Shown piece after piece: positions 2,897-34,541 of a stretch of DNA of 38,027 nt. Numbering within the stretch: position 1 is the stretch's first letter; every line of letters begins with the position of its first letter. The notes below the pieces were generated by a model. The model did not search any database. It saw nothing but the letters and a program-made list of their open reading frames with translations, and was not told the DNA's origin. The stretch lies in IMG/VR virus record IMGVR_UViG_3300020187_000003. One strand, 5' to 3'. The translations under genes and the position numbers were made by a program. The stretch is from a virus.

Positions 2897-3103
2897 TCAG
2901 GTGGTTTCGTAGTTGGCCTCGTCCTCTTCCTCGTCATCATCCAGGACCCTTGTCATGCCCTCGCGACTCAGTTTCTCAGCCGCAACGTAGGATCCGGCGT
3001 CGGCCAGTCCGAAGTGGGTGTCTGTTGTGATTACGCAGCGGTATCTCCATGCGGGGGATGCGGTTGGACCCCAGTCAATAAACAATACCCTCTCGACAGT
3101 CAT
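2897..3103 (-). CDS. Hypothetical protein with an acidic C-terminus (DDDEEEDE)
   Basis: The start is chosen at the ATG (MTVERV) that forms an ATGA overlap with the upstream stop at 3100-3103. Confidence 0.6.
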   Translation of the reverse strand: MTVERVLFIDWGPTASPAWRYRCVITTDTHFGLADAGSYVAAEKLSREGMTRVLDDDEEEDEANYETT

Positions 3104-3387
3104 TCTCCTACCTTCAGGGTGAAGCTGGCGCTGGCCCGCTCCCATCCACCGTGGTCCGATGGTTCTAGGATGGCCTGCAGTGCGGTGATCATGTGTGATA
3201 CGGCGTCGTGCGGCGCACCTGGCAGGAAGAGCGTGACCGACCCAGCGGAGCGTTGACCGCCCCCCTCATCCGTCCTGACCATGACCTCAAGGGTGGTGAT
3301 CTTGCCGTCGTTGTACAGGTCATCGACCTCGATGGCGACTCGCGCCTCCTTGCATTGGGTGGCCTGGATGTTGGTTGATGTACTCAC
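3100..3387 (-). CDS. Hypothetical protein (95 aa)
   Basis: A GTG start forms a GTGA overlap with the upstream stop (3384-3387). Confidence 0.65.
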   Translation of the reverse strand: MSTSTNIQATQCKEARVAIEVDDLYNDGKITTLEVMVRTDEGGGQRSAGSVTLFLPGAPHDAVSHMITALQAILEPSDHGGWERASASFTLKVGE

Positions 3388-3635
3388 TTGCTCTCCTCAT
3401 TGTTGTTGAAACCTGGGAACGGTGGTGGTGGTGGCATAAGGCCAAGCTCCACCTTGAGATCTTGCCGTGCCACGTAGGCTGCAGTGAACTCGTTGTAGTT
3501 GGTCGCAGCGTCGACCCGGGCTGTCGCTGCCAGCATGCGCCGCCGTGCAATCTTGTCCTCGTACTCGAACATCATGTGCTCACCTGTACGCCAATCGTCG
3601 TCCATGCGCTGGCCTGTCCATTCTTCATCATTCAT
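3384..3635 (-). CDS. Hypothetical protein (83 aa, PPPPP tract)
   Basis: ATGA overlap with the upstream gene at 3632-3635. Confidence 0.65.
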   Translation of the reverse strand: MNDEEWTGQRMDDDWRTGEHMMFEYEDKIARRRMLAATARVDAATNYNEFTAAYVARQDLKVELGLMPPPPPFPGFNNNEESK

Positions 3636-3907
3636 TGTCGCTTGCCTTCCTCGCTGGCATGCCAGCTATTCCATTGCATCTCATCAAACTGCTCATCGGT
3701 CGGTCGCCACATCGGGTTGTCTTCCAGAGTGTGGATCACAGCGTCGAACCCCCCGTCGTAGTAACCGGCGTCCAACCATACAGTTGCACACCTTTCGCAC
3801 TCCCTCATGTCCTCCTCACTCATTCCGTCCCCACTGAGCAGGGTTGCCCGATGGTCGCTCGCTTGGATAGCCTCGGCCATTTCGATGTCTACGTCGTTCC
3901 ATATCAT
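3632..3907 (-). CDS. Hypothetical acidic protein (91 aa)
   Basis: AAGGAG Shine-Dalgarno (3915-3920 on the minus strand) lies 7 nt before ATG 3907. Confidence 0.7.
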   Translation of the reverse strand: MIWNDVDIEMAEAIQASDHRATLLSGDGMSEEDMRECERCATVWLDAGYYDGGFDAVIHTLEDNPMWRPTDEQFDEMQWNSWHASEEGKRQ

Positions 3908-3918
3908 TTCATCTCTCC

Positions 3919-3960
3919 TTGGTTGGTTGGTTGGTTGGTTGGTTGGTTGGTGGTTGGTTG
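3919..3960. repeat. (TTGG)8 microsatellite plus a degenerate extension; reads (CCAA)n in the minus-strand mRNA
   Basis: Eight perfect TTGG units at 3919-3950, then TGGTTGGTTG. The tract fills the spacer between stop 3962 and the SD at 3915-3920. Confidence 0.95.
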
Positions 3961-3961
3961 C

Positions 3962-4168
3962 TCATGCTCGGCACTCGGTGGCGCACGGTGTGCCCTTGGT
4001 GAGTAGCCGGGTCACGACCCGGTCGGCAGCTTCGAAGGTTTCTTCGGTCGGCTCCAGAATGCTGTACACCTGGTCGCTGATGTCGACAGCGCATCCGCAC
4101 GTCGTGAATACGTGCAGCTCGTTGTTGTGATGCAGCTTCAGCTCGTAGCTGGCGGTTGTGTTGTTCAT
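3962..4168 (-). CDS. Hypothetical protein (68 aa; an alternative ATG at 4219 would add an NPTQPSQPNQPTQ extension)
   Basis: AAGGAG (4174-4179 on the minus strand) lies 5 nt before ATG 4168. The longer ORF reads through the repeat tract. Confidence 0.6.
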   Translation of the reverse strand: MNNTTASYELKLHHNNELHVFTTCGCAVDISDQVYSILEPTEETFEAADRVVTRLLTKGTPCATECRA

Positions 4169-4177
4169 GGTGTCTCC

Positions 4178-4216
4178 TTGGGTTGGTTGGTTGGGTTGGC
4201 TGGGTTGGGTTGGGTT
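4178..4216. repeat. Imperfect TTGG/TTGGG microsatellite; a CCAA/CCCAA leader on the minus strand
   Basis: TTGGG TTGG TTGG TTGGG TTGG C TGGG TTGGG TTGGG TT, immediately 5' of the SD of gene 3962-4168. Confidence 0.9.
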
Positions 4217-4274
4217 CATCGCGGGCCGACACACCACAGTGCAGCGGCCAACAGTAGGACTATCAGCAGCAAGG

Positions 4275-5129
4275 TCATGCCGTCGCTAGTTCTTTAGCCA
4301 TCGGGGAGCGTCGCATCGTACCCTTAGCCGACAGCAGCACAACCCCGGCGCTGTCCTGTGTTCGGTCATCGTGCAGGTCGCCGTTCGTGGCGTCCATACC
4401 GTGCCACGTCGGCACGTCCAGCTCGCTGGCCTTGGCCCGAATCACGACAGCCACACTGTGTCCAGCGTCGACCATCGACCGGATAGCGTCGACAGTAGTA
4501 TGTTCGGTGGCCGAATATGTCAGGTGGTAGTTCGTTGGTCGGTTGCGTTCACGGATCTGAGCCGGAATCTTGCTGTAATCGTAGAACCGGGCCAGACGAC
4601 CCAACGGATCCCGCAGCTTGAACACCCGTGGAAGTAGTACTTCCCAGCGTCGGTCGCTCAACACGTTGAGCCGATGCAAACACTCACCGAGAGTTGTCGC
4701 AAGGTTGGACCTAACCTCATGCTCTACGATCCGAGCGAACGCCTCCGGGTAGGTGTGAGCGAATACCGTCTTACAGATCCGCCCGAGCTGTGCGCTCTCA
4801 TATCGTCCGTTACCGTTAGCCTGCAAACAGTTAGCGCTACATTCAACAGTCGCATGTGGACACTGGTCGGGCACGGAATACCCCGACTGGATGCCGTGCG
4901 CCCTGCAGTAGTCACGAGCGATAGTGTGCGGTGCTAGCGACAGCCCCCACGTAGGTAGTGTGGACTTATCAAGTTTCGAATTGTCCGTCGGTTGGGTCAA
5001 TATCTTTACGACCCCGGGACGATGAACGAAACCGAACTGTGTACGGAATTCCGCATAGGTTCGGTAGTCGTCTCGGACCTCGTCCGACATGTAGACCCGA
5101 GCGCTGGTTACCTTGGTTGTTCCTGGCAT
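4275..5129 (-). CDS. Cys-cluster protein, possibly GP88-like (function unknown)
   Basis: 284-aa ORF. The segment LSLAP...CPHATVECSANCLQANGNGRY resembles, from memory, the SLP..CP.A..C...C..G.Y signature of phage GP88-family proteins. Not verified. Confidence 0.7.
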   Translation of the reverse strand: MPGTTKVTSARVYMSDEVRDDYRTYAEFRTQFGFVHRPGVVKILTQPTDNSKLDKSTLPTWGLSLAPHTIARDYCRAHGIQSGYSVPDQCPHATVECSANCLQANGNGRYESAQLGRICKTVFAHTYPEAFARIVEHEVRSNLATTLGECLHRLNVLSDRRWEVLLPRVFKLRDPLGRLARFYDYSKIPAQIRERNRPTNYHLTYSATEHTTVDAIRSMVDAGHSVAVVIRAKASELDVPTWHGMDATNGDLHDDRTQDSAGVVLLSAKGTMRRSPMAKELATA

Positions 5130-5206
5130 GGCTTTCTCTCTCTCTTGGTGTAGTTCACCATGAGACCATCGGACATACGCCCGATAGCCCTAGCTGGACT
5201 AACCGA

Positions 5207-6462: not shown

Positions 6463-6506
6463 ACCAAACGCCCGATGTGACGCATTTCACATGTGACACA
6501 TGTCAC
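6397..6506. promoter_or_regulatory. Operator-like array: four copies of TGTGAC(A/G)CAT
   Basis: Perfect 15-bp tandem GTGACACATGACCAT x2 (6398-6412, 6413-6427), TGTGACGCAT (6476-6485), and the palindrome GTGACA-CA-TGTCAC (6493-6506), which ends 12 bp upstream of TTGACA. Confidence 0.5.
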
Positions 6507-6517
6507 CCCCTACCCCC

Positions 6518-6545
6518 TTGACAAAAATCCGGCGGCGGGTACCCT
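6518..6545 (+). promoter_or_regulatory. Candidate rightward sigma-70/SigA-type promoter
   Basis: TTGACA (6518-6523), a 16-nt spacer, then TACCCT (6540-6545, TANNNT type). Confidence 0.4.
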
Positions 6546-6819
6546 TAGGGGTGGAGGGCGGGTTAGGCGAGATTGGTGGGGGTGGGTTTTGGTGGGGATG
6601 GTACCTGGTGGTGGGTGGCTGGTTGTGGTGTGAAAAAGGCGGGGTACACTACAGTCGAGCTTATGGGTCCACCATAGGGTGGCTCTGCCACCATGTGTCT
6701 TTGCCCGCATAGGGCTATGTCTGGGACCATGTTTTGTTTTTGCGAGCAGTAAGCGAGCAGTCTTTGAACCCTCTGTATGTCTTTGTTTTATTGGGTTTTG
6801 AGATTTAATAAGTTTTTTC

Positions 6820-6848
6820 TTGACTTTGGCCTAGGGTGCAGCTAGGCT
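6820..6848 (+). promoter_or_regulatory. Candidate rightward promoter for the packaging/structural block
   Basis: TTGACT (6820-6825), a 17-nt spacer, then TAGGCT (6843-6848). It is preceded by an AT-rich, UP-like tract GAGATTTAATAAGTTTTTTC. Confidence 0.45.
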
Positions 6849-7001
6849 TTCAAATACCGGAGTGAGCGGCAGCGAGGGTCGCCTCCTTTAGTTCCGGCTC
6901 CTCGGGCACAGAGTGCAGAGAGGAGCTAGGTGCAGAGGCAGCGGGTGCAGCTATTTGGAGAGACTTGTGTCTCTAGTGTGGCGTGTGTAGGCTGCTCGTC
7001 T

Positions 7002-7166
7002 ATGGATGAGCTTGTGGATATGGTGGAGTTGTTAGAAGGTAAGGCTTTGTGGGGAGAAGGGTTGGAGCCTTCTTTGGTGCGTGAAGTGGCGCGTGTGCTG
7101 CAGGCGGCTATTGACGAGATCACTTTGTTGTGTGAGTTTGCTGCGGAAGTGGACGAGGGTTTCTGA
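7002..7166 (+). CDS. Possible small acidic helical protein (54 aa)
   Basis: ORF in the late leader, starting at MDELVD. No clear SD. It could instead be untranslated leader. Confidence 0.25.
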   Translation: MDELVDMVELLEGKALWGEGLEPSLVREVARVLQAAIDEITLLCEFAAEVDEGF

Positions 7167-7235
7167 TCGCTGGTATGGTGGTGCTCGCACCCGGTCATTC
7201 TTCCTCCTCTCTCAGGGTGGCCGGGTGCTTTAACC

Positions 7236-7706
7236 ATGAAGTTTGGAATGTTGCCTAATGAACCCGACACGACTGCTCGTGAATTGTCTGAGTTCGGTAA
7301 AGAACTGCTTGAGTGGGATACCACTCCTAGAGATTTGCGTGACGAAGGCGAAAAGACTTTGGTCGGCTATTGCAACAGTCGTGGCCATAGTCGCAATCGT
7401 TGTATGCGGACAATGCAAAGAGATGACTACAAGATGGCGCGTCGCCAACTGTCACTCGAAAAAGGTGAAGTCGACTACAAGACCAGAGCAATCCTTGACG
7501 TGGCCTACGAACAGGCACTGAAAGGGAACCCTCAGGCCCGCAAAGACTGGATGGCTTTCTACCAGCCGACAGCCCGCCACCTCACGCCCGCCAAGGTCGA
7601 CGTGCAGGTTAAAGAAGAACCGGTCCCTGTGGAAGCGGTGGAGCCTACGGCCATGAGCGATGAGGAATTAGAAGCTGCTGTAGCGGAATGGGCTAACGAT
7701 GGATAG
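7236..7706 (+). CDS. Putative small terminase subunit / DNA-binding protein (positional call)
   Basis: First sizeable ORF of the late block, upstream of TerL. It has a basic HTH-like centre (GYCNSRGHSRNRCMRTMQRD) and an acidic C-terminus. Confidence 0.5.
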   Translation: MKFGMLPNEPDTTARELSEFGKELLEWDTTPRDLRDEGEKTLVGYCNSRGHSRNRCMRTMQRDDYKMARRQLSLEKGEVDYKTRAILDVAYEQALKGNPQARKDWMAFYQPTARHLTPAKVDVQVKEEPVPVEAVEPTAMSDEELEAAVAEWANDG

Positions 7707-7742
7707 CCCCACGACTGCTCGCATCACGACTTTGAGGTCGGG

Positions 7743-8657
7743 ATGAGTCAGACTAGGCGAGAGATCCTTCTGCAGAACCGCTTGTTGAAGGGCACTAACC
7801 CTGCCAGCCGTTCGCTCGTTTTGGGTGGCGTGGATAACGCTGTGATTGCCGGTGCCCAAAACGCTGTGCTGGGTGGGAAAGATTCAAAAATAACTAATTC
7901 TGATTATTCAACGATTACAGGTGGCAACACAAACACTATTACTGGTTCTTTGGAATCAGGAATTGTTGGGGGAATAAGCTGCTCTATTAATGATGCGGCC
8001 GAATCTACAATAATGGCTTCTAGCGACACAACGATTAATGGTGCTAACTCTAGGGATGTTGTCGCCATCGGTTGTATTGGCAGCACTGTTGGCGCTCCTG
8101 GGGGAGCGTGGGGAGCGCGAAGAAGCCTGGTTCAAGGTTTTTACAATACTTTGGCAGCGACAGCAGATAGCTACGAAATTGTTTTGATGTCTCACACTTC
8201 TAGTGTGGACGATTCACGTTACGCAACAGTTTTGGGCGGGAGAGCTAACACCGTAACTGGAAGTTATTCAACTGTGGTGCTAGGAGGAGAAGACAACACT
8301 GTTACTGACAGCGTGAGAAGCTCCGTGATTTCTTCCCTTCGGAGCGAGCTTACTACCACATACCGCTCGGCAATTATTGGGGGCGACAGCAACTCGATTG
8401 ACAACTGTGTTTCATCAGCAGTTTTGGTGGGAGATAACAATACTAACAACAACGATTTTTCTGTCATGTTGGGCTGTGACACCCGCACATCTGTCGGCCA
8501 GTTTACAACGCACGTAGAAAATTTTAAAGCTTTCGGTGCCACCATTGATTTCGGGGCGCTTCCAACTACCCCCACTCCATACTTGCAACCTGCTTTGACG
8601 GCAGGGCAGTTGTGGGTTTCAGGCACTTCTCCAAACAAATATTTAAGAATGGCATAG
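7743..8657 (+). CDS. Beta-helix-type repeat protein (GG-x-x-N-x-I/V periodic repeats), fibre/adhesin-like
   Basis: GAGG SD before the ATG. Repeats such as VLGGRANTVTGSYSTVVLGGEDNTVT, ITGGNTNTITG and IIGGDSNSID. GC is markedly lower than the neighbouring sequence. Confidence 0.75.
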   Translation: MSQTRREILLQNRLLKGTNPASRSLVLGGVDNAVIAGAQNAVLGGKDSKITNSDYSTITGGNTNTITGSLESGIVGGISCSINDAAESTIMASSDTTINGANSRDVVAIGCIGSTVGAPGGAWGARRSLVQGFYNTLAATADSYEIVLMSHTSSVDDSRYATVLGGRANTVTGSYSTVVLGGEDNTVTDSVRSSVISSLRSELTTTYRSAIIGGDSNSIDNCVSSAVLVGDNNTNNNDFSVMLGCDTRTSVGQFTTHVENFKAFGATIDFGALPTTPTPYLQPALTAGQLWVSGTSPNKYLRMA

Positions 8658-8665
8658 GAGCAGGC

Positions 8666-9031
8666 ATGCATTTAAGATCAGCAAAACTTGTAGACCTTAA
8701 AATGTTTAAGCAGGCGTTTGAGGCTTCTCCAAAAGCAGCGTTTCAGTCTGTAATGACCGATGAATCGGGCAAACCGTCTGGACGTGAAGTGGCTGTGTAC
8801 ACGAATTCTGGTCCTGCAGGGGAAATAGTTGGGATCATGACGTGGAAAGACGCTCTAATAGTTTTGGCAGACGTGAAAAATTATTCGTTTTTAGAAGGTG
8901 AAGCCCTGAATGAAGAAGGTGAGCTGGCGCTCATAGTCGGGGAATCTGATAACAAAAAGACAGATCGGCTGCTGGCAAAGCGTGCAGATTTGCAAGCGAA
9001 GATTAACAAAATAGATGAACGGCTAGCGTGA
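8666..9031 (+). CDS. Hypothetical protein (121 aa) with a coiled-coil C-terminus
   Basis: AGGAG SD lies 5 nt before ATG 8666. This start is preferred over the longer ORF start 8612, which overlaps the previous gene. Confidence 0.65.
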   Translation: MHLRSAKLVDLKMFKQAFEASPKAAFQSVMTDESGKPSGREVAVYTNSGPAGEIVGIMTWKDALIVLADVKNYSFLEGEALNEEGELALIVGESDNKKTDRLLAKRADLQAKINKIDERLA

Positions 9032-9165
9032 TGGACGCTGCGGGCTGGTGGGACATGGTTAAAGGTGAGCAGATGTCGCCGCTAGTAGGCCACGTTTTGA
9101 CAAGTCTGGTGTTGTATGCGGAACAGTTGGAGGTTGCTCAACCTGAAAAAGATGAGGAAGAGTAA
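9031..9165 (+). CDS. Possible 44-aa coupled mini-ORF
   Basis: TGATG overlap with the upstream stop and TAATG overlap with the TerL start. Too short for the ORF track. Translates as MDAAGWWDMVKGEQ...EKDEEE. Confidence 0.35.
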   Translation: MDAAGWWDMVKGEQMSPLVGHVLTSLVLYAEQLEVAQPEKDEEE

Positions 9166-10763
9166 TGGCTTCCAGGGAGGAGGTTGAGCAAGAGGTAGAG
9201 TTCCGCCGTTGCAAAGCAAACGTGTTCTATTTTTTAGAAACGTATTGGCACATTTCGACTCCTGGGGCTTCGCCGTTGTTTGAGTTGCGAGAGCCTCAGC
9301 GGATAGCTTTGGAAACGTGGGAAAGCGGCGAAAACACTATTTCGTTGAAAGCCCGCCAGATTGGCTGGTCGACTCTGTCTGCTGCTTACGCGTTTTGGAT
9401 AGCGTTCTTTCACCCTGACCAAACGATTGTAATGCTTTCTCGTACCGAAAATTTTGCTAAAAAGCTATTGCAGATGAGCAAGTATGGTTATGCCCGCATT
9501 CCTGACTGGATGAAAGAGCGTGGGCCTGCGGTTGAGAAACAGAATCTGCTTGAGCTTAATTTTCAGAACGGTTCTTCTATCGAGTCAATGGCTTCCCGTG
9601 AGAACGCTGCTCGTGGCATTACGGCTTCTTTGATTATTGCTGACGAGTGGGCGTTCTTTAACGATCCTGCTGAGGCTTGGACTGCTATCTATCCCGCGAC
9701 TGAAGTTGGCGGGCAGATTATTGGCATCTCTACGGCTAACGGGTTTGGCAACTGGTTCCACAAGTTTTACAATTCTGCCAAGGCTGGAACCAACAATTTT
9801 AAGGCAATGTTTTTTCCTTGGAATTCCATTCCGTCTCGTGACGAGGCATGGTACTTGCAGCGCACGAAGGACATGGAACCTTGGCAGTTGTCGCAGGAAT
9901 ACCCGGCTACTGACGAAGAAGCATTTATAGCTTCGGGTAACCCGGCATTTGACACTGACATGTTGAAGTCTCGTATAGAGATTTTGCCGCCCGCTTTTGA
10001 AGGGATACTGGCAGAAGGGGACGACGGGGTCGCCACTCTTGTCCGGGTTCCTGAGCCGAACTTGAAAGTGTGGGAGAAACCGCAAGGCGGCATGCTGTAT
10101 GTGGTAGGCGCTGACGTGGCTACTGGTGCAGAGGACGGCGACTACTCTACAGCCACTGTGATTAAAGCGAACACGGGCCAGGTTGTGGCTGTGTTCCGTG
10201 AACGTATTGTGCCTGAAGACTTTTCTGATTATTTGGCTAGGTTGGCGTTGTGGTACAACACGGCTTTGCTCGCTCCTGAACGGAACACGCATGGCCTGGT
10301 GGTGGTGCGGAGGCTCACGTACGATTTGAAGTACCCGAATCTTTACATGCATGTGCGTGACAACATCCGGCAGTCTGTAACACGCAATGTGGGCTGGCAT
10401 ACGAACCAGGCTTCAAAGATGGTTTTGGTTGACGAGCTGGGGGCAGGGTTGCGGCGTGGAAAGCTTATCCTTCATTGTGAGGATACGTTTACGGAGTTGT
10501 TGGCTTTCTCTCGTAAGACTCGTTCGGGCGGGAACACTGTGTATGAGGGGAAGCCTCATGATGATCTTGTTATTTCTTTGGGTATTGCCAATATGGCGTT
10601 GCAGCAGGTTCATGTCCCTGAGATAAAAGAAGAAGAGCCGGATGGGTTAACTATGGCTTTTTTTGAATCATTGGTAGACCGGGCGAAAGGTGCAACAAAA
10701 ACGCCCTATACTGCTGGTTACAGAAAACCGCCGACTACACCGGACTTTGTGATTTATGCTTAA
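9165..10763 (+). CDS. terL: Terminase large subunit
   Basis: Walker-A-like KARQIGWST, Walker B LIIADEWAF, and a coupling motif ISTANG. Nuclease-domain acidic residues are present (VGADVATG, HDDLVISL). 532 aa, immediately upstream of the portal. Confidence 0.93.
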   Translation: MASREEVEQEVEFRRCKANVFYFLETYWHISTPGASPLFELREPQRIALETWESGENTISLKARQIGWSTLSAAYAFWIAFFHPDQTIVMLSRTENFAKKLLQMSKYGYARIPDWMKERGPAVEKQNLLELNFQNGSSIESMASRENAARGITASLIIADEWAFFNDPAEAWTAIYPATEVGGQIIGISTANGFGNWFHKFYNSAKAGTNNFKAMFFPWNSIPSRDEAWYLQRTKDMEPWQLSQEYPATDEEAFIASGNPAFDTDMLKSRIEILPPAFEGILAEGDDGVATLVRVPEPNLKVWEKPQGGMLYVVGADVATGAEDGDYSTATVIKANTGQVVAVFRERIVPEDFSDYLARLALWYNTALLAPERNTHGLVVVRRLTYDLKYPNLYMHVRDNIRQSVTRNVGWHTNQASKMVLVDELGAGLRRGKLILHCEDTFTELLAFSRKTRSGGNTVYEGKPHDDLVISLGIANMALQQVHVPEIKEEEPDGLTMAFFESLVDRAKGATKTPYTAGYRKPPTTPDFVIYA

Positions 10764-11058
10764 CGAATACACACCGCATCATGCTGTATGCAATGATTGC
10801 AATACGGTGTTTGAAGATTTGCACAAGCACGGGGTGTGTTTTGGTTGCAAAATATCTACTTTGACTTTTGACAAAGTTTCTTATATTGAAGACGGAATGG
10901 CTGAAAAAGAATTAGTGGCAGCTAACGCTGCTTCGGGCCGGAAGATTGTTAGGGCTTCTCAGACGGACCCGGATAAGCAAGCAGAAGCAAAGAAGACAGT
11001 AAAGCCAACTCTCTCTGACGAGACTAAACGACGGATTTATCAAACTCATGGACGCTAA
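10756..11058 (+). CDS. Small zinc-ribbon protein (CNDC...CFGC)
   Basis: Overlaps the TerL end and the portal start. Two CxxC pairs and a basic C-terminus. Confidence 0.55.
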   Translation: MLNEYTPHHAVCNDCNTVFEDLHKHGVCFGCKISTLTFDKVSYIEDGMAEKELVAANAASGRKIVRASQTDPDKQAEAKKTVKPTLSDETKRRIYQTHGR

Positions 11059-13150
11059 CGAACTTATACCCGCTCCTTCTGGGCGCGTGCCCGTGAAGAG
11101 GCAGCAGAAACTAGCTGATTACCGGGCTGAAATTGCTGCTTCGCAACATCAGATGGAGGAGAAGAAGTATCACGAGAAGTGGCGGCGGTTCATACACATG
11201 TATGAAGCGAATCTTAATTATTCGACTGACCCGGCAGTAGACTCGATAGATGTTCCTATTGCGTTTGCAAACGTCAACATCCTGCGCTCTGCGTTGACGG
11301 TCAACCATCCTAAGTTTACGGCTTCGCCTCGCAACCTCCAATCTCATCTGGCTGCGACTTTGTGCGAAGAGATCGTAAATTGGGAGTGGTATCACAACGA
11401 CATCCAAGATGAGATCCGCAGGACTACAGACGATTTGTTGATAACTGGCAATGGTTTTATCAAGGTTGGGTATCAGCTTGACACGTATGGGAAGCGTTCG
11501 GATGTGAGCCAGCTTGCTTCGCCTGCCCCTATGGGTGGCATTGATTACGCAGCGTTTGAACAGCCAGGCTACAACAAAGAGTTTGATAAAACTGTTGAAG
11601 GCGCTGCGCAGGTTTTGAATTCTAGGGCAGCTATGGGTTCAGATCTACCCTCTCGTTCTGCGATGGCTAAGCAGTTGCGGGAGCAGGGTTCAATCATTGT
11701 TAAAGATGATTGTGTAGTCGAGCGGGTAAGCGTCTTTGACATGCTCGTTGATTCGACCGCTACGTCTATGAAGAACTTGCAGTGGATTGCGCAGCGCGTG
11801 CCGGTGCGTAGCGATGTGGCCCAGAACAATAAAAACTGGGCACCTCGGATTCGCAAGCAGTTGCGTGCGGGGCAGAAATCTATTGCTGAAGATCCTGAAG
11901 ATGAGGGCTTTAACGCCCGTTACAACTCGCCTAACTCTTCCATAAGCCAAGGCCGTCCTGGTGGGGAAAAGATTGAATGGGTGATTGTGTGGGAGTTTTA
12001 CGACTTGCAAGAAGGAACTATGTGTGTCTTTGATGACAACATGGCAGACGATTTTCTTGTAGAGCCTCAGCCAATGCCGTTCAAGTTTGGCCACCCGTTT
12101 ATCCATATTGGTAATTATTCTGTGCCTGACAAGTTCTGGCACATTGGCGATCTTGAACGCATTGAAACTCTCCAGATGGAGATTAACAAAACGCATTCGG
12201 CTCTGGTAAACGACCGTAAAGGTTTCCAGCGGAAATGGATGGTTCGTGAAGATTACTTGACTGACGCTGGCCCTAACTCGCTATCGGAAGTGTTGCGTTC
12301 TGAAGACGACAACTTGATTGCTTCGATCCCGATTAAGGGGCAAGGGGTCAGGATGGAAGACATTATTTCCAGAGTCCCTTCACCAGCGTTAGATCCGGCT
12401 TTGTACAGTGTGGGGTCCAAGCTGCAGAATCTGATGAATGAGGTGAGTGGCATTTCGGATTTCCAGCGTGGCGCTTCTGGCGGCGGCGGCACTGCAACTG
12501 AAGCAGCGATCATTAATGATGGCACTCTTGCTCGCATGAAAGAGAAGCAGGGCAAGCTTGAGCATCTGATGCGCGATGTAGCCCGCCGTCTTGTGCAACT
12601 TAAAATGCAGTACATGAAATCTGAAAAGATGTTGCGCATTTCTTTGGGTGCTAACCCGCAGTCTGCCGAAAAGCTGCGTAATGCTGGTGTGGATTTGAAG
12701 GGAGCCAACTCGCAGGATCCGACTGAGTTGTTTACGTCTTACACCGCTAAAGATATTCAAGGTGAGTACGACGTTATTGTGGAAGCAGGATCTTCTACGG
12801 CGTTTAATGAATCGCAGCGTCGCCGATCTATTCAGGAGATGCTGGCGACTGTCGGCCCGTTTTTGCAGATGGGCAAGATTGATGTTGACGCATTGTTGAC
12901 TTATGTGTTGCGGTTTGGGTTTGGCATACCGAATGCTTCAGAGTTCATGGTCGGGACGGCCCCTGAGCCTGCGGGTCCGCAGGGCGGAATGGTAGAGCCT
13001 GGAGCGGGGCCTGGTGGGGGTTTGCCGCCTGATTTAATGGCCATGATGCAAGGCCAGGGTGGCCCTGCTGGGGTGCCGTCTGTGGCTGGCGGGGTGTTGC
13101 AGCCTTCTGGTGGGGTGCCTCAGTCTGCGGCTCAACCACCACCTTATTAA
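11048..13150 (+). CDS. Portal protein
   Basis: 700-aa ORF directly after TerL and before the scaffold/capsid genes. The Gly/Pro-rich C-terminal tail is unusual. Confidence 0.8.
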   Translation: MDANELIPAPSGRVPVKRQQKLADYRAEIAASQHQMEEKKYHEKWRRFIHMYEANLNYSTDPAVDSIDVPIAFANVNILRSALTVNHPKFTASPRNLQSHLAATLCEEIVNWEWYHNDIQDEIRRTTDDLLITGNGFIKVGYQLDTYGKRSDVSQLASPAPMGGIDYAAFEQPGYNKEFDKTVEGAAQVLNSRAAMGSDLPSRSAMAKQLREQGSIIVKDDCVVERVSVFDMLVDSTATSMKNLQWIAQRVPVRSDVAQNNKNWAPRIRKQLRAGQKSIAEDPEDEGFNARYNSPNSSISQGRPGGEKIEWVIVWEFYDLQEGTMCVFDDNMADDFLVEPQPMPFKFGHPFIHIGNYSVPDKFWHIGDLERIETLQMEINKTHSALVNDRKGFQRKWMVREDYLTDAGPNSLSEVLRSEDDNLIASIPIKGQGVRMEDIISRVPSPALDPALYSVGSKLQNLMNEVSGISDFQRGASGGGGTATEAAIINDGTLARMKEKQGKLEHLMRDVARRLVQLKMQYMKSEKMLRISLGANPQSAEKLRNAGVDLKGANSQDPTELFTSYTAKDIQGEYDVIVEAGSSTAFNESQRRRSIQEMLATVGPFLQMGKIDVDALLTYVLRFGFGIPNASEFMVGTAPEPAGPQGGMVEPGAGPGGGLPPDLMAMMQGQGGPAGVPSVAGGVLQPSGGVPQSAAQPPPY

Positions 13151-13230
13151 GTCGCGAGTTGTGGTGCATGCTCTTTTAGTGTCATAATAGGGATTGTCCG
13201 TACAATCGGACATTCGAACTATTAGAGGAT

Positions 13231-13995
13231 GTGACCCCTGTGAATTCAGGACTAGTCAATGCAGCCGAAGACTCGAACCCTTCCAAGCAAATAGATATGA
13301 CCCAAATGGTCCCTGTCACCATCAAAGGTGTAACTACCGAAATGACTTTGCAAGAAGTCGTTAACGGCTACGCCTCAAGACAAATGGTGACAGAAGCTAC
13401 AACGCGAGCAGCAGAGTTGCAGAAACAGGTCGAAGCTTTTGACCGTTTCAAACAACAGCTTCAGACAGATCCTAATCGGATTGTCACGGGGCTTGCTGAA
13501 CGTTTTCAGGTTAATATATCTCCTACCAGGGCCAGCGATGATTACCCTGATGACGACCCAGAGGTGGACTCTGAGTTGGTGGAAGTCAAGAAACAAGTGG
13601 CAGAGACAACAAGGCAAATGGCTTTGTTGCAAAACCAGTTGGCAACCAAAGCACATGAATCTGAAATTGAAACAAAACTTTCGGGCCTGCAACAGGCCCA
13701 CGGCGATGCTTTCGATAAGGACAAGGTACTTAATTACGCGTTGGTTAATGATATTAACGATGTGGAAACAGCGTTTAAGGCATGGCGTTTCGATGAAGGA
13801 CTTTCAACCCCTTCTCCCGACGGCACGCTTGACAGTGCTGTCCAGGCATTGGGGCAGATTGCTCCTGGTGCACCTACCGCTACACCGGCCCCGGCTAAAG
13901 CCGCTTACGAAGCTCCTAAGGACATTCGTGAGTCGCTGCGCCGAGCGTATGCTGCGGCGGATATGGACATGGATGAGATACTTAGTTCCGTATGA
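13231..13995 (+). CDS. Scaffolding protein (start uncertain: GTG 13231 or GTG 13240)
   Basis: Acidic, Q/E-rich, coiled-coil-like 254-aa ORF between portal and capsid. The GAGGA SD fits GTG 13240 better. Confidence 0.65.
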   Translation: MTPVNSGLVNAAEDSNPSKQIDMTQMVPVTIKGVTTEMTLQEVVNGYASRQMVTEATTRAAELQKQVEAFDRFKQQLQTDPNRIVTGLAERFQVNISPTRASDDYPDDDPEVDSELVEVKKQVAETTRQMALLQNQLATKAHESEIETKLSGLQQAHGDAFDKDKVLNYALVNDINDVETAFKAWRFDEGLSTPSPDGTLDSAVQALGQIAPGAPTATPAPAKAAYEAPKDIRESLRRAYAAADMDMDEILSSV

Positions 13996-14023
13996 TCCTG
14001 TGCAACATTTTTAGGAGAAAACA

Positions 14024-14977
14024 ATGGCAGTAGGTAACGCAGATTTTGGAGAGATCGCTTCAACGACTCTCAACGAGCATGCTTCAATGCTCGCTAATAA
14101 CATTTTTGAGAATCAGCCGTACATGTTCTGGATCAACCAGGCTGGCCGGGTTAAGGATTTTGCTGGTGGTGCTACCATCGTCGAGCCTTTGATCCACGCA
14201 GTAAACGGCACGTTCTCGTCTTATTCGGGTTATGACACCCTGACCGTAACGCCTCAAGAAGGCATTTCGTCGGCAGTGTTTACGCCTCAGCAAGCATATG
14301 TCAGTGTTGCTATTGACGGTTTCAGTCAAATGGTTAACGCTGGGCCGGAAGCAGTCATTGACTTGCTTGAAGCCAAGATGATGCAGGCTACCGAAACGGT
14401 CACTCAGGAAATGAACACCATGTTGGTGACTTCTGATGGCACAGGTAACAGTGGCAAGGACTGGTTGGGTCTTACGGCTTTGATCGGTGACCACGTCACT
14501 GGTAACGCTAACGTCGGCGGCATTGTTGTGGCCGATAACACTTGGTGGCGTTCACAGGTTGACGATGTCGGCGCTGGCGCTCTGGTTCTGTCTGACATGA
14601 ACACTATGGTGAATAACTGCAGCAATGGTGTAGACCGACCTGACCTCATTCTGACTTCGCAGAAGCAGTTTGAAGCGTTCGAGGCGCTGTTGGCTCCTCA
14701 GCAAATGTTCCGTGATCAGTCGATTGCAAACGCCGGTTTCCGCAACCTGCTTTACAAAGACATCCCGGTCATTTATGATACGAATGTTGCCGACGATGAC
14801 ATGTACTTCTTGAACTCGAAGTATCTCAAGCTGCGCCCTAACCGTCGCACTTGGTTCACGACAACTCCATTCGTGCGTCCCCACAATCAGGACGCAATTT
14901 ATGCCCAGATTCTCATGGGCGGTCAGCAGACCGTAAATAACCGTGCGCGTCAGGGCTATATGCACAACATCGGTTAA
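14024..14977 (+). CDS. Major capsid protein
   Basis: 317-aa ORF with a strong AGGAG SD, in the capsid slot after the scaffold. Size and composition are typical of HK97-fold podovirus capsids. Confidence 0.78.
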   Translation: MAVGNADFGEIASTTLNEHASMLANNIFENQPYMFWINQAGRVKDFAGGATIVEPLIHAVNGTFSSYSGYDTLTVTPQEGISSAVFTPQQAYVSVAIDGFSQMVNAGPEAVIDLLEAKMMQATETVTQEMNTMLVTSDGTGNSGKDWLGLTALIGDHVTGNANVGGIVVADNTWWRSQVDDVGAGALVLSDMNTMVNNCSNGVDRPDLILTSQKQFEAFEALLAPQQMFRDQSIANAGFRNLLYKDIPVIYDTNVADDDMYFLNSKYLKLRPNRRTWFTTTPFVRPHNQDAIYAQILMGGQQTVNNRARQGYMHNIG

Positions 14978-14988
14978 GGGGATAATTC

Positions 14989-15399
14989 ATGGCATTAACT
15001 TTGAAAGCCACTGATGCAAGTGGTAATCCTGGCACGGTTGTCGGCCGGGCTATGGACCGTATTGGGATTGGCGGTCGCCCTATCAAGGGCGTCGGCAAAC
15101 TTCATTACGCTTCGTACCTGATCGACCTCGAAAACACTGCGTATGTGACTGGCGGTGTGCCCATTCCTGTGGGTACGTGCGGGTTCACACGCATCTTTGA
15201 CATGTTGGTGCTCGCAGGTAAAGACCCTTACGGGGCTGCGGATGTGCCACACGTAACTACCGGTTTGACGTTTACTTTGGACAGTACGGACCCTACGGTC
15301 CCACTGCTGGTCATTAAAGACGACGCTGGTGAAGTAGCGGCCGCTTCAACTCAAGCTGCAGGTTCTGCAGTTTGGGTTGTGTTTGGTGGTTTGCGATGA
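14989..15399 (+). CDS. Hypothetical head-associated protein (136 aa)
   Basis: ORF 11 nt after the capsid stop, co-oriented. No motif recognised. Confidence 0.65.
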   Translation: MALTLKATDASGNPGTVVGRAMDRIGIGGRPIKGVGKLHYASYLIDLENTAYVTGGVPIPVGTCGFTRIFDMLVLAGKDPYGAADVPHVTTGLTFTLDSTDPTVPLLVIKDDAGEVAAASTQAAGSAVWVVFGGLR

Positions 15400-15626
15400 T
15401 ACAGGGGGACCCAGCCCATGCGTGGTACGGTCCCCCTGGTTCTGAACCTGTTAGTGGGCCGGGGTCTAATCAGATCTCGGCCTACAACGGGCCAGGCCAG
15501 GGCGTTGTTCAAGTGTTTGAACCGCGTGAAGAGGCTGCAGTCGGATGCCAGGGCAAATTGTCTGACAATACTCGATGCCGTAAAGGCAAGAAACCTTTGT
15601 GTAAAGAGCACCTCCACCTGAAATAA
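15396..15626 (+). CDS. Small Gly/Pro-rich protein with a C-terminal C-X9-C-X8-C-X2-H motif
   Basis: ATGA overlap with the upstream stop (15396-15399). C-terminal segment GCQGKLSDNTRCRKGKKPLCKEH. Confidence 0.5.
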   Translation: MIQGDPAHAWYGPPGSEPVSGPGSNQISAYNGPGQGVVQVFEPREEAAVGCQGKLSDNTRCRKGKKPLCKEHLHLK

Positions 15627-15635
15627 GGATTATAA

Positions 15636-16430
15636 ATGTCAGTACTTGAACCGGGTGGGGCAACGACTTACGACAGGGTCCGTGATTGGGCTTTGGATGT
15701 AGGAGGATGGGGGACGACGTGTCCTGTGCCTGCTGAGATAATGGATGCACTGCTGCTTGATTGCTTGCAGACAATCCACACGCAAATCTGGGACCACGAC
15801 AAATATAAAGCCAAGTGGTCATTTACAATTGCTGCTGACGATTACTTTGTGGACGCCGGTGGTGGCACTCCGGCTATTACTACCAGCATTTTTTCTCCGA
15901 TGTTTGCTGTGTTGAATAAGATTCAACGGCGGAGAGATCATAAAGAACTGTTTCAAGCAGAGTCGTATCCTAAGATCCCGATGGCGGGTTTGGATGATCC
16001 GGTAAAATCGGAAGCTGAGCCTGCGCGTCTGGAATGGTTTACTTGGGGCGACGAGTTTGTTGTCTCCCCTCCTTCTACTGGCGCTGAAACGTACGACGCT
16101 TTCGGTTACCGCATTTTGAACCGTTCTATCTGGACGTATTCTGCGCCTACAACTACTTGGCAAGTCGTGGATTTGCCTGATGCGTACATTGAGACGTATC
16201 AGAAGTGCGTGCTGGGTTTCTTGCTGACTGCGACTAATGACCATGTTGGTGCAGAGAAATGGTTGCGTGCAGCTTCGGACGAGCTGGGGTCTTTGCAGTC
16301 TTTGAACAGCGGTAATGTGATGAACCGTTTGCCGTTGGAGCTGGATGAGCCTTTGCGTATGGGCGGCACTCCTTACAAGAAGTATGGGGTTGGTGTGCCT
16401 TATTACCTTCCTGAGATTGTGACTCTGTAG
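15636..16430 (+). CDS. Putative head-tail adaptor / tail tubular protein A (T7 gp11 slot, positional)
   Basis: 264-aa ORF after the capsid genes and before a 637-aa ORF, matching the T7-like order. Confidence 0.5.
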   Translation: MSVLEPGGATTYDRVRDWALDVGGWGTTCPVPAEIMDALLLDCLQTIHTQIWDHDKYKAKWSFTIAADDYFVDAGGGTPAITTSIFSPMFAVLNKIQRRRDHKELFQAESYPKIPMAGLDDPVKSEAEPARLEWFTWGDEFVVSPPSTGAETYDAFGYRILNRSIWTYSAPTTTWQVVDLPDAYIETYQKCVLGFLLTATNDHVGAEKWLRAASDELGSLQSLNSGNVMNRLPLELDEPLRMGGTPYKKYGVGVPYYLPEIVTL

Positions 16431-18343
16431 TGGCGTTTAGGAACATGCTTGCTGCTCGGGCGCAAGCGAACGCAACTGAAGCGGTCGTGCAGGTCGACTT
16501 TACTGGGGGTTTGCGAATCGGCGCTGATGGCATGGAGTTGCAGCCAAACGAGGTGAGGGATTGCATGAACGTTGACTTCCCTGCCACTGGCGGGGTTGAG
16601 CGACGCAAGGCCGTGTGGCCTTTGGCTGCTACTAGCGAACGCATTTCAACTACGACCGACATCGTGGAATACCGGACACCTACTGGGGTGTATTTGTATT
16701 GGAGCACGGAGGGGGCGAACGAGAAACAATTGTTTGTCGACGGTTCCGACACGCTGACTACGTCTGCGTTTGTGCCGCCTGGTGCAGGCAAATCGTTTAC
16801 GGGCACTCAGGTTGGGGACAAGCTTTACGCCCGCACGGCCAATGGCCCTAATAGGGGCTGGTCTTTGTGGGACGGTACTGCAGCGGTTGATGTGCGGAAC
16901 AAGTTTCGTGAAGACGACTATGAGGGGACAGGTCTTCCCAACTTTTCAGAGTTTCATCTAACAGGCACGCCTCGGGGTAAGAGGTGTTTGAGTTGGAATA
17001 GCCGCCTGTGGGTGTGGGGTAGCGAGGTGGAGTTGGAGGATGGCGCTTACGTGTACGATGCGGCTTTGGGGAAAGCGGTGTGGACCCCTGATGCTGGCCC
17101 TACCTCTTCGTTCTACGAGGACACGTCCACGCTGTATTTCTCGTTTGCTTATGGGCAGCGGGAAGACGAAGGGCCTCAAGACTTTTACGCTAATTGGGCG
17201 TTGAGGTTTGAGCCTGACGGCATGGGCGAGATTGTATCTTTAGCTTCTTTGGGCGAACGCCTGTTTGTGTTCGGTGATAATCGGATCCATGTGGTTAGCC
17301 CTAACTTTGCTGAGCCTGTGGAATTGTTTTATCAAGTGCAGGAGTATCGTTCGGATATAGGTTTGGCTAACAAGCACGCTATTGCTGCTTCAGGGAACAG
17401 TGTGTGGTTCTTTGATCAGGAGAAAGGGTTGATGGAAATCAATTCTGAGGGGGCGCTGGTTGGGCACATGGAAAAGATTGACGGCTTGATGCCGTTGCTG
17501 CTGCGTGATAAGTCTTCCGTGTGTTTGGGTTTGTATGACGACCGGGTGTGGGTGAGTGTCCCTGAGATCCTGCCTGGCGGGAGCGCTACGCCTGATGGCA
17601 ACACTCGCACGTATGTGTATGACATTAAGACTCAGGCTTGGACCCGTTACAATTTTGGGGTTGACAGGTTTTTCTTCTACCGTGCTTATTTAGAAAACGG
17701 TGAGGACAGGTTGTTTGCTTGGGTGCATCAGCACGCCGACAATCCTGACGTAGAAAACTCTATTGTCCAGTTGGATTATGATCCGGTGGATTTCGCTAAC
17801 GATTATTATTTGCCTTCGACTGTCGCTGGGAGCGGCATGGTGCCTATCGAGTCTTATGTGGCTACGTCTTGGATTGATGCGGGGAGTCCCGAGCAGACGA
17901 AGGATTGGGTTGGGGCGGAAATGTTTTTTCGCACGCTGCCTGATGTGACTTGTTCTATTACTGCGGCGAGTGATTGGGATCCGGCTTCTCCTGCGTTGAG
18001 TGTGGTTAAGGATGTGGGAAACGAGGGGACTTGGGATGATGGCGGGTTTTTGCCTACGTCGTTTACGGGCAATTACCCGAATTTTACTGCGGTGCCTAAT
18101 GCGGTGGCTGGTGCGTGGAAGGAGAACTCGGTGTTGTTTCCGACGCTGGTTGCTCGTGAGGGGCGGGATGGGGAGTATGACCCTGTTGTGCCTGTGAGTG
18201 CTGAGCGGTTGGCTCAGCCTGTGCGGGTAAACAGGTTTTGTGCGTCTCGTTGTGTGAGTGTGAGGGTTGAGCCTGTTGAGGCTGGGAAGTGGAACTTGGA
18301 TCGTTTGTCTTTGTTCTTTGAACGATGGCTGATTAGGACTTAA
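16430..18343 (+). CDS. Putative tail tubular protein B / nozzle (T7 gp12 slot, positional)
   Basis: 637-aa ORF with a GTG start that overlaps the upstream stop (TAGTG). Rich in W/Y/G, as beta-propeller-like tail proteins are. Confidence 0.5.
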   Translation: MAFRNMLAARAQANATEAVVQVDFTGGLRIGADGMELQPNEVRDCMNVDFPATGGVERRKAVWPLAATSERISTTTDIVEYRTPTGVYLYWSTEGANEKQLFVDGSDTLTTSAFVPPGAGKSFTGTQVGDKLYARTANGPNRGWSLWDGTAAVDVRNKFREDDYEGTGLPNFSEFHLTGTPRGKRCLSWNSRLWVWGSEVELEDGAYVYDAALGKAVWTPDAGPTSSFYEDTSTLYFSFAYGQREDEGPQDFYANWALRFEPDGMGEIVSLASLGERLFVFGDNRIHVVSPNFAEPVELFYQVQEYRSDIGLANKHAIAASGNSVWFFDQEKGLMEINSEGALVGHMEKIDGLMPLLLRDKSSVCLGLYDDRVWVSVPEILPGGSATPDGNTRTYVYDIKTQAWTRYNFGVDRFFFYRAYLENGEDRLFAWVHQHADNPDVENSIVQLDYDPVDFANDYYLPSTVAGSGMVPIESYVATSWIDAGSPEQTKDWVGAEMFFRTLPDVTCSITAASDWDPASPALSVVKDVGNEGTWDDGGFLPTSFTGNYPNFTAVPNAVAGAWKENSVLFPTLVAREGRDGEYDPVVPVSAERLAQPVRVNRFCASRCVSVRVEPVEAGKWNLDRLSLFFERWLIRT

Positions 18344-18344
18344 T

Positions 18345-19475
18345 ATGAGCGGCAACGATTTTGTAACTATTAATGTAGGCGACTTGACTATCACAGCGGA
18401 TTTGTCGCTGGAACCGGTAGAGGACCGCCCTGCAATTATTGAAGAACTTACCGTTTCCACTCAGGCATACTCGGCAGTTACTGGTGTTCCGTCAAGTGTT
18501 AATCTTTTGCCGGGTTCGAGCACTCAGCTCCAAAGAAATCCTTATAGCACTGCGGACCTGGGGTTGCCGGGTTTAAGCTTTGATGGCCCGGCTGTAGACC
18601 TTAACACTATTGATCAGTTTATGGCACGGCAAGGACAGGAAACTTATTTTCAGTACATGCAAGAAAGCCGTGTAGCGAACAGGGATGCGGCTGCTGCTGC
18701 TGCCGCTATTGCTGCGGAAAACAAACGATTTAATGACGCCATCTCTGCTTTTGATCGAGAGGTGTTGCTGCAGAATCGCAAGTTTGAGGATGAAGCCCGC
18801 AGGCTGTCAGACATTGCTGCGCAAACAAAATCACAATACGACATCCAAGCGGCTCAGCGGGCTGTGGCTACCGCTGAAAGGAACAAGGCGGAACAGGCTG
18901 CAAACTTTGAATTGCAGATGGATTCGTTTGAGAACACTCAAGGCGATTTCTTTCGTGATACTTCCACGGGGGCTGACCCTTCACGGGCTATGCGTTCGGC
19001 TTATGTCGGTAACCAGTCTCCGTTGGCGCAGTATGCGCAGCGGGTGCAGGATCTTGCTACGGCTTCGAATCAGGAGAAACTTGATATCCAGCAGGAACGC
19101 ATTTCTGAGGCTGACCGGCAGGCTCAGTCTGCTATACAGGATCGTCAAGACGCGGCTCGGGCGTTGGAACTAAAACGCCAGAAGGACGAGGAACAGCGGC
19201 TTCTGGCTGGTGCCCTTGTCGGCCAATCTACGGGAGCTAATCGTTTGTCCTTCGACCAGAGGGAAGAACTTGTCCAAATGAAGCTTGCTGGCGGGGATTG
19301 GGAAGGAACTATGGCAAGCTTTAACACCGTGTCGACAGACATCGGGGCGGGTAGTTCTGCTGTCGATACTGCTGCGAATAGTGCTGCTGGAGCTGGTGGT
19401 CAAGTTAATACTCAAACAGATCCAGCACCCGAGCGAATTACAAATAATTATGTATGGGGCGGCATACCTCTATGA
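18345..19475 (+). CDS. Putative internal virion / ejection protein (Q/A-rich coiled coil)
   Basis: 376 aa with a poly-Ala run (DAAAAAAAIAAE) and long Q/E/R-rich helical segments. It sits after the tail-tube genes. Confidence 0.5.
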   Translation: MSGNDFVTINVGDLTITADLSLEPVEDRPAIIEELTVSTQAYSAVTGVPSSVNLLPGSSTQLQRNPYSTADLGLPGLSFDGPAVDLNTIDQFMARQGQETYFQYMQESRVANRDAAAAAAAIAAENKRFNDAISAFDREVLLQNRKFEDEARRLSDIAAQTKSQYDIQAAQRAVATAERNKAEQAANFELQMDSFENTQGDFFRDTSTGADPSRAMRSAYVGNQSPLAQYAQRVQDLATASNQEKLDIQQERISEADRQAQSAIQDRQDAARALELKRQKDEEQRLLAGALVGQSTGANRLSFDQREELVQMKLAGGDWEGTMASFNTVSTDIGAGSSAVDTAANSAAGAGGQVNTQTDPAPERITNNYVWGGIPL

Positions 19476-26520: not shown

Positions 26521-26918
26521 GATACGGGTATGACGCCTGTGTGGCGGAGGAAGATGCGTCCTTGTATGGGGCGTATCTCAAACTCGCCGTACTCGGCTGC
26601 GTGTTCTTTAGCTTTGCGTTTCAACCGGCGCAGGGCTTTGTCTTGACGTGACTTGACGTTCTCCACTGTCATCAGCCCTTCAGGGCAGATTTCTTTCGGT
26701 AACGCTATGACGTACTCTGCTTGCGTGTCGTACACACAGATCCAGTTGTCCTCACCGTCAGGGTGGATAACATGTTTGGCCCGTGCCATGTGGAACAAGG
26801 GCTTGTATCTGTCCCAGTGGGTTTCGTCAGGCAGCGCAGTGAACCCTTCAAAGTGGGTGAGCGCCGATTCGAGCTGCTTGTAGAATGCTCGTTGTTCTGC
26901 GGTCAGGTACCTAGCCAT
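26496..26918 (-). CDS. Hypothetical protein (140 aa), last gene of the replication block
   Basis: ORF whose 3' end overlaps, convergently, the 3' end of the giant plus-strand gene by 25 nt. Confidence 0.6.
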   Translation of the reverse strand: MARYLTAEQRAFYKQLESALTHFEGFTALPDETHWDRYKPLFHMARAKHVIHPDGEDNWICVYDTQAEYVIALPKEICPEGLMTVENVKSRQDKALRRLKRKAKEHAAEYGEFEIRPIQGRIFLRHTGVIPVSQLENKDA

Positions 26919-27648: not shown

Positions 27649-27651
27649 TGG

Positions 27652-29818: not shown

Positions 29819-29820
29819 AG

Positions 29821-34519: not shown

Positions 34520-34541
34520 CAACAAGGACTAGGGGTTTCTG

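Follow-up and report, generated by a model that had tools for sequence, protein, structure and literature searches.

The variable segment upstream of the terminase gene

The window analysed here, the full 38,027-nt stretch of the viral record IMGVR_UViG_3300020187_000003 (IMG/VR), carries a group of three plus-strand genes directly upstream of the gene for the large terminase subunit (TerL; 9165-10763, plus strand; Pfam Terminase_6N, 4e-8; PHROG terminase large subunit, 2e-31). The first open reading frame (ORF), at 7743-8657, encodes a fibre-like protein of 304 amino acids (aa) with a 16-residue repeat and a predicted beta-roll fold. It is followed by the gene for a 121-aa partner protein (8666-9031), whose ATG lies inside a 139-aa ORF beginning with GTG and whose product ends in a C-terminal coiled-coil-like helix, and by a 44-aa gene (9031-9165; 40-49 aa in relatives). 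Both small ORFs between the 304-aa gene and TerL are real genes, as described in an earlier reading made from the sequence alone (the initial annotation). Shine-Dalgarno-like motifs precede the two larger genes of the group (GAGG five bases before the 304-aa ATG, GGAG five bases before the 121-aa ATG); the stop codon of the 121-aa gene overlaps the start of the 44-aa gene (TGATG), the stop of the 44-aa gene overlaps the start of TerL (TAATG), and the series 121-aa gene, 44-aa gene and TerL is translationally coupled.

Comparison with relatives (contigs are denoted by L-numbers, homologous proteins by P-numbers) reveals a sharp break of DNA homology within this group. The DNA of L003-L006 is 96-97% identical to the window over 6476-7880 and again from 9150 onward; between 7880 and 9150 the sole alignment with these contigs is a 70-nt stretch on the plus strand, 8590-8659, which codes for a conserved C-terminal motif of the fibre protein (…LTAGQLWVSGTSPNKYLRMA) and is 78.6% identical to the cassettes defined below as type B. 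On the left, homology breaks off at fibre codon 46; on the right, it resumes 15 bases before TerL. At the protein level, the window and L003 agree closely in TerL (100% identity), the major capsid protein (MCP; 100%), the portal (98.9%) and the product of the upstream neighbour of the cassette, a 156-aa gene on the plus strand (7236-7706; 97.4%), whereas the fibre, the 121-aa protein and the 44-aa protein share only 37%, 26% and 41% identity, respectively. This combination of backbone identity and local divergence indicates that the island is a replaced cassette of 1269 bp, 7881-9149, which comprises the body of the fibre and both small genes. The view expressed in the initial annotation, that the content of the island has a history unlike that of its flanks, is borne out by these breakpoints, by the contrast in protein identity, and by the synonymous divergence (dS) described next.

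For cassette typing, thirteen further loci were taken through TerL. Type A is found in the window, L008, L012 and L022; type B in L003-L006, L011 and L016; and type C in L001, L002 and L017. Cassettes and backbones reassort: types A and B each occur on TerL backbones that are ~100% and ~83% identical to that of the window. Between the window and L022, dS is 0.04-0.075 in the cassette genes and 1.48 in TerL; the low cassette value combined with the high TerL value implies that the cassette has moved recently between diverged backbones. The fibre also evolves fast at the amino acid level, with a ratio of nonsynonymous to synonymous divergence (dN/dS) of 0.6-0.77 among type-A copies, against only 0.007-0.09 in TerL and in the 156-aa gene; substitutions in the fibre cluster in residues 161-240, and the putative N-terminal anchor is almost invariant. 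Across cassette types, fibre residues 1-50 are 68-80% identical, a range that also describes the N-terminal segment encoded by codons 1-46 (7743-7880, plus strand), and residues 51-240 are 22-28% identical; the C-terminal motif LPTSS-GL-AG-LW-SGTSPNKY-RMA is retained. A conserved N-terminus, a variable body and a maintained C-terminal motif are what one would expect of a fibre that is anchored to the particle and varies in its distal part. Codons 1-46 may have a double role, as virion anchor and as left homology arm for exchange; TerL, which is 100% identical at the amino acid level in contigs with a different cassette, would provide the right homology arm, and 8590-8659 is a possible internal recombination point.

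The slot that holds the cassette is occupied throughout the clade. A search of 5.8 billion proteins found only eight relatives of the 304-aa protein, one of them 89% identical and the others 32-36%, in phages from marine metagenomes that share the gene order 153-156 aa, fibre (304-363 aa), 121-124 aa, 40-44 aa, TerL, ~100 aa, portal and MCP; L003-L008, L012 and L022 stem from coastal metagenomes. A homologue adjoins TerL in all relatives that cover the region (19 of 19). In L021 and L023 (TerL ~71% identical), the 156-aa gene is followed by genes for a 609-aa YadA_head protein (at 188-2017 in L023), a 154-aa and an 83-aa protein, a 121-like protein, a mini-gene product and the fibre; here the fibre gene overlaps TerL directly. 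The only phage without the fibre gene is the much more distant MW202803 (TerL 40% identical), which has a 168-aa packaging protein instead. No promoter-like or terminator-like site flanks the 304-121-44-aa group on the plus strand. The initial annotation had proposed a recently acquired moron; this proposal is contradicted by the filled slot, the lack of autonomous signals and the overlap with TerL. The fibre slot is ancestral to the clade, and its content exchangeable.

Base composition

The GC counts for 60-nt samples that had led to the recognition of a low-GC island are correct, with 22/60 at 7861-7920, 36/60 at 3001-3060 and 30/60 (previously given as ~29) at 9301-9360. The local dip is real: at a GC content of 0.468, the segment 7881-9149 is the lowest of all 1269-nt windows genome-wide, and the minimum starts exactly at 7881. 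Its depth is modest (z ~ -2.6 vs. the genome and ~ -2.7 vs. the head module), only ~4 points below the neighbouring genes, and the boundaries of the island had to be redefined to 7881-9149. GC content is 0.480 in the 304-aa gene and 0.448 in the 121-aa gene, compared to 0.500 in TerL, 0.511 in the portal gene and 0.545 in the genome; the late block 7236-19475 as a whole is already low in GC (0.507). The corresponding values for third codon positions (GC3) are 0.449 for the 304-aa gene, 0.414 for the 121-aa gene and 0.537 for TerL. Since a conserved core gene between TerL and portal (10756-11058) is even lower, with a GC of 0.432 and a GC3 of 0.386, the lowest of the late genes, composition alone is weak evidence of foreign origin. 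According to the initial annotation, its reading would be contradicted by a GC profile with no local dip, or by relatives that all carry the gene in place with native composition; half of this applies, as all relatives that cover the region have a homologue at the same position (19 of 19).

Repeat structure and family affiliation of the 304-aa protein

The periodic GG-x-x-N-x-(I/V) units that had been read from the 304-aa product are all present, far above shuffle expectation: the protein contains five matches to the pattern [VILT][VILT]GG-x(1-2)-[NSD][STNA][VI], whereas shuffled sequences (n = 5000) contained 0.008 on average and never more than 2, and its self-similarity is maximal at lag 16 (z = 7.9). 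The protein has no significant match in Pfam, PHROG or NCBIfam. When 1.84 billion representatives were scanned in full with HMMER, 364 matches emerged, mostly to repeat regions of proteins of 500-3000 aa; several distant homologues of the repeat body (P0022, P0161, P0165, P0167, P0170, P0176) bear a Peptidase_S74 domain, and some bear LbR_Ice_bind, a beta-roll family. In a search of the PDB with the family profile, the best match was the UspA1 head (3pr7; E = 1.6e-5, but with a bias of 27.9 on a score of 21.5, indicating heavy repeat bias), followed by a beta-roll ice-binding protein (E = 0.02); the UspA1 head is a YadA-type trimeric adhesin head. An AlphaFold2 model built on a 20-sequence alignment predicts a regular solenoid with a mean predicted local distance difference test score (pLDDT) of 72.9, in which strands of five and three residues alternate, two per 16-residue turn (pLDDT 78-87); a model from the single sequence (pLDDT 32.6) was discarded. 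Foldseek matches to right-handed beta-helices, tailspikes and lyases (template modelling scores of 0.2-0.3) were weak and generic and were dropped as an assignment.

The modelled architecture, with 16-residue GG…N-x-(I/V) repeats and two strands per turn, resembles the YadA head (Hep_Hag, UspA1 3pr7), yet the protein has neither a stalk nor a membrane-anchor domain. The 304-aa protein has no match to Pfam YadA_head (PF05658) at E <= 0.1; the same search scores the L023 609-aa protein at 81 bits as YadA_head (cut-off 25; 6e-23), which demonstrates that the model works in this setting. An hhalign comparison of the 304-aa family with this 609-aa protein was not significant (probability 0.6%). Since neither the Pfam search nor the alignment connects the two families, the 304-aa protein is best described as YadA-head-like in predicted architecture only, and it is not assigned to the YadA_head family. 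The Pfam scan of the 304-aa protein revealed no C-terminal membrane-anchor beta-barrel or coiled-coil stalk family, and no signal peptide or membrane anchor family. The protein does not fit a trimeric autotransporter adhesin, given the missing anchor and stalk families, the size of only 304 aa, and the phage-specific terminal motif. The literature yielded nothing specific on YadA combined with tail fibre.

The partner protein and the search for a small terminase

A homologue of 121-127 aa follows the fibre gene in L001-L006, L008-L010, L024 and L026; in L021 and L023 the order of the 121-like and fibre genes is inverted. The 121-aa gene always accompanies the fibre gene, even in unrelated genome architectures, and the rank order of partner identities tracks that of the fibre bodies. 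The family consists of 25 clusters with no annotated relative; residues 10-70 are CBS-motif-like in a PDB profile search, too weakly to be of use (IMPDH 1ak5, E = 0.097; MJ1225, E = 1.1). Peptidase_S74 is the intramolecular chaperone ("chaperone of endosialidase") of phage fibres and spikes, and the repeat body of the 304-aa protein is linked to such proteins through its distant homologues, which carry this domain at the C-terminus; unlike them, the 304-aa protein ends in a different conserved motif and is accompanied by a separate 121-aa gene. Because the distant homologues carry the chaperone within the chain and the 304-aa protein does not, it is most economical to assume that the 121-aa protein acts in trans; it may be an assembly chaperone, cap or adaptor for the fibre, by analogy with the chaperones of Alteromonas phage fibres (PMC10579305).

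Neither the 156-aa protein, the putative TerS (small terminase subunit) of the initial annotation, nor the 121-aa protein matches a TerS in Pfam, PHROG or NCBIfam. BLASTP against the "DNA-packaging protein" of MW202803 gave E = 0.41 for the 156-aa and 0.038 for the 121-aa protein over 15-26 residues only, which does not support either as a TerS; no TerS was identifiable anywhere near TerL with Pfam, PHROG, NCBIfam or BLASTP.

Links to tail and host-recognition modules

The closest versions of the cassette proteins lie outside the syntenic clade. The fibre body is most similar to P0011, and it scores 92 bits against L010 vs. 45-58 bits against the syntenic clade relatives; the 121-aa partner is 54% identical to its counterpart in L010 and 55% to that in L009, vs. 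26-27% to those of the syntenic relatives. In L010, a long-tailed phage that encodes a tape-measure protein, the tape-measure gene is followed by genes for proteins of 538 aa and 400 aa, the fibre homologue, the 121-aa homologue, and proteins of 83 aa and 115 aa. Next comes a minor tail protein of 254 aa, which in its C-domain shares 76% identity with the product of 34575-34937 in the window, and further on a 235-aa gene (53% identical to 33800-34516) and a 135-aa gene (44% identical to 35707-36093). These matches fall in a second fibre module of the window (32988-36114, plus strand), which consists of genes for a 271-aa and a 132-aa fibre, partners of 247 aa and 263 aa, and a 137-aa protein. 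Each fibre of this module is followed by its ~250-aa partner, and the two fibres share a C-domain that matches PHROG 8780. In this domain, the 132-aa fibre matches "minor tail proteins" encoded by phages of Gordonia and Streptomyces, which suggests an actinobacterial host.

In the 43-kb relative L026, genes for a 693-aa fibre, a Laminin_G_3 protein and a 136-aa protein (57% identical to 35701-36114 in the window) are followed by the fibre homologue, a 124-aa gene, a 49-aa gene and TerL; homologues of the fibre genes at 33-36 kb of the window thus stand directly upstream of the fibre-124-49-TerL group. L024 has the fibre gene and its 127-aa partner upstream of a 1078-aa protein and an endolysin. 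In L026, L009 and L010, homologues of the second module immediately adjoin the beta-roll/121-aa pair; in the window, the module at 33-36 kb excludes the 304-aa gene, and the homologues of that gene elsewhere sit in tail or host-recognition modules. The contiguity in L010, L026 and L009 implies that the beta-roll/121-aa pair belongs to a larger host-recognition module, which is split in the window genome; the two loci are ~9.5 kb apart around the circle.

Genomic setting

An exact direct repeat of 127 nt (1-127 = 37901-38027) is a signature of circular assembly; the exact terminal repeat gives a unit length of 37,900 bp, and the window represents the complete genome as assembled. A gene-poor hub of 1.7 kb is followed by a rightward late operon, which opens with the 156-aa gene. 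Downstream of TerL, the operon continues on the plus strand with the conserved 100-aa gene at 10756-11058, whose product has the cysteine pairs CNDCN…CFGC; its counterpart in MW202803 is annotated as "DNA-directed RNA polymerase", which appears to be a mis-annotation. The portal gene (11048-13150, P22/SU10 type), a 254-aa gene and the gene for an SU10-type MCP (14024-14977) follow; portal and MCP are also encoded on the plus strand. The minus-strand replication block at 26496-32311 includes an AEP-type primase (27652-28701; Pfam AEP-TOTE, 1e-22), a DnaB-like helicase (28581-29588) and a PD-(D/E)XK nuclease (31367-32311). An endolysin with PG_binding_1 and Peptidase_M15_3 domains is encoded at 36626-37222 (PHROG endolysin, 4.5e-26), and a GP88-family protein at 4275-5129 on the minus strand; no integrase was seen among the window proteins scanned. 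A second stretch that varies in comparison with the near-identical L004 lies in the early minus-strand operon, with an indel at 2909-3099 and 84-88% identity over 3099-5201, compared to 96% elsewhere.

A probable host-recognition cassette and its alternatives

The 304-aa protein is probably a virion fibre, and a tail-associated one, that forms a host-recognition cassette with its partner. The proposal in the initial annotation that the product is fibre-like and not a packaging protein is upheld indirectly, by the profile match to the UspA1 head, the Peptidase_S74 domains of distant homologues, and the homologue linked to a tape measure. Most likely, the protein would be a trimeric beta-roll fibre of the virion, with residues 1-45 as the clade-conserved anchor, the repeat body (residues ~46-260) as the variable, host-facing and presumably receptor-binding part, and the conserved C-terminal motif closing the fibre; the 121-aa partner would stand in for the intramolecular chaperone domain of the distant homologues. 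The segment 7881-9149 would represent an allelic cassette whose slot, at the beginning of the late operon, is fixed; homologous recombination in the anchor-coding 5' end on one side and at the TerL start on the other would exchange it, and a swap would alter host recognition while the rest of the genome remains unchanged.

Several observations weigh against this reading. The phage itself is uncultured, and cultured phages offer no counterpart of the 304-aa protein, since a tblastn search of the fibre against 50,697 phage records was empty even at E = 5, a result to which the low-complexity filter may contribute. Structural matches are weak: Foldseek with the monomer model gave weak and generic matches (best PDB E = 0.035), and the best viral fold match (E = 1.5e-4) is to an unnamed protein. 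For the 121-aa protein, no match to a chaperone family emerged. Tail fibre genes do not usually open a late operon in coupling with TerL, an arrangement that would also fit a packaging-linked role of the two small genes. Finally, the closest known versions of body and partner, in L010 and L009, have a GC of 0.57 and for this reason do not explain the low GC of the cassette.

The location of the fibre on the particle is one point on which a different reading, an appendage of the head or neck (head fibre or collar) that mediates reversible surface adhesion and not primary receptor recognition, has to be considered. The 304-aa gene is grouped with those for packaging and the head, apart from the other fibre genes of this genome; the phage already possesses two fibre/partner pairs (32988-35701) with C-domains like those of actinophage "minor tail proteins"; and a pre-neck appendage protein is among the weak fold matches. 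Yet the homologue in L010 comes after the tape measure and two further tail genes, and those in L026 and L009 are contiguous with the tail-fibre module, so that the context favours the tail and a head or neck appendage is unlikely.

A somewhat smaller likelihood attaches to a division of roles in which only the 304-aa gene encodes a fibre, and the 121-aa and 44-aa genes are packaging accessories, equivalent to a small terminase, that are carried along by linkage. The failure to identify a TerS near TerL, the one-base overlaps that join the 121-aa, 44-aa and TerL genes in an arrangement typical of TerS-TerL pairs, and the coiled-coil-like helix at the end of the 121-aa protein are compatible with such a function. 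It is difficult to reconcile with the 54% identical 121-aa homologue that L010 carries within its tail module, a long way from a terminase gene, or with the 127-aa homologue of L024, which precedes the 1078-aa protein and the endolysin; moreover, phages with 100% identical TerL have 121/124-aa proteins that are only 26% identical, and in L021 and L023 the fibre gene separates the small genes from TerL. A combination of packaging and appendage functions is improbable but would be consequential: the 121-aa and 44-aa proteins, made in concert with TerL, could load the beta-roll fibre onto the portal or neck during packaging or immediately after it, or double as the missing TerS, with fibre type and packaging accessory swapped as one cassette. 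If true, head completion and host recognition would be linked in a way that has not been described before.

A non-structural moron, a recent accessory gene that benefits host or phage and is unrelated to the particle (cell-surface adhesin, exclusion factor or ice-binding-like protein), could account for the lowest GC of any segment in the genome, for the missing family annotation of the 304-aa protein, and for repeats that resemble bacterial adhesin heads and ice-binding beta-rolls, but it is highly improbable in view of the slot filled in 19 of 19 relatives, the N-terminus conserved within the clade, the embedding in the late operon with no promoter or terminator of its own, the lack of a detectable signal peptide or membrane anchor family, and the linkage to tail genes in other phages.

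Comparison with known systems and implications

The probable host-recognition cassette has partial parallels in other phages. In T7, the gene order is tail fibre gp17, small genes, TerS gp18 and TerL gp19; the window likewise has a fibre gene a few small genes upstream of TerL, but in the window the group comes first in the late operon, not last, the terminase has a T4-type N-terminus and the portal is of the P22/SU10 type. No homology to gp17 or gp18 was found for the cassette genes. The Alteromonas phages A5 and V22 exemplify modules of a tail fibre and its cognate chaperone that distantly related phages have in common (Gonzalez-Serrano et al., 2023; PMC10579305). As in these modules, fibre and small downstream partner travel together, occur with different tail types, and are swapped by recombination. 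The putative recognition cassette described here differs in that it has no detectable sequence relation to the A5 and V22 fibres or chaperones; in its location where the late operon begins, with coupling to TerL; and in the division of the host-recognition genes over two distant loci.

The exchange of fibre modules, by which phages commonly alter their attachment, is well known as a phenomenon; the present case adds an unannotated family in an unusual genomic position. This family, for which Pfam, PHROG and NCBIfam offer no model, is linked, as is its 121-aa partner, to the tail-fibre modules of otherwise unrelated phages, and the same cassette is found on backbones with a TerL dS of ~1.5. The boundaries of what is probably a natural host-recognition cassette can be given to the base pair (7880/7881 and 9149/9150) for abundant, uncultured marine phages that probably infect actinobacteria; the findings are of use for annotating metagenomic phages, for predicting host-range genes, and for choosing constructs for structural work.

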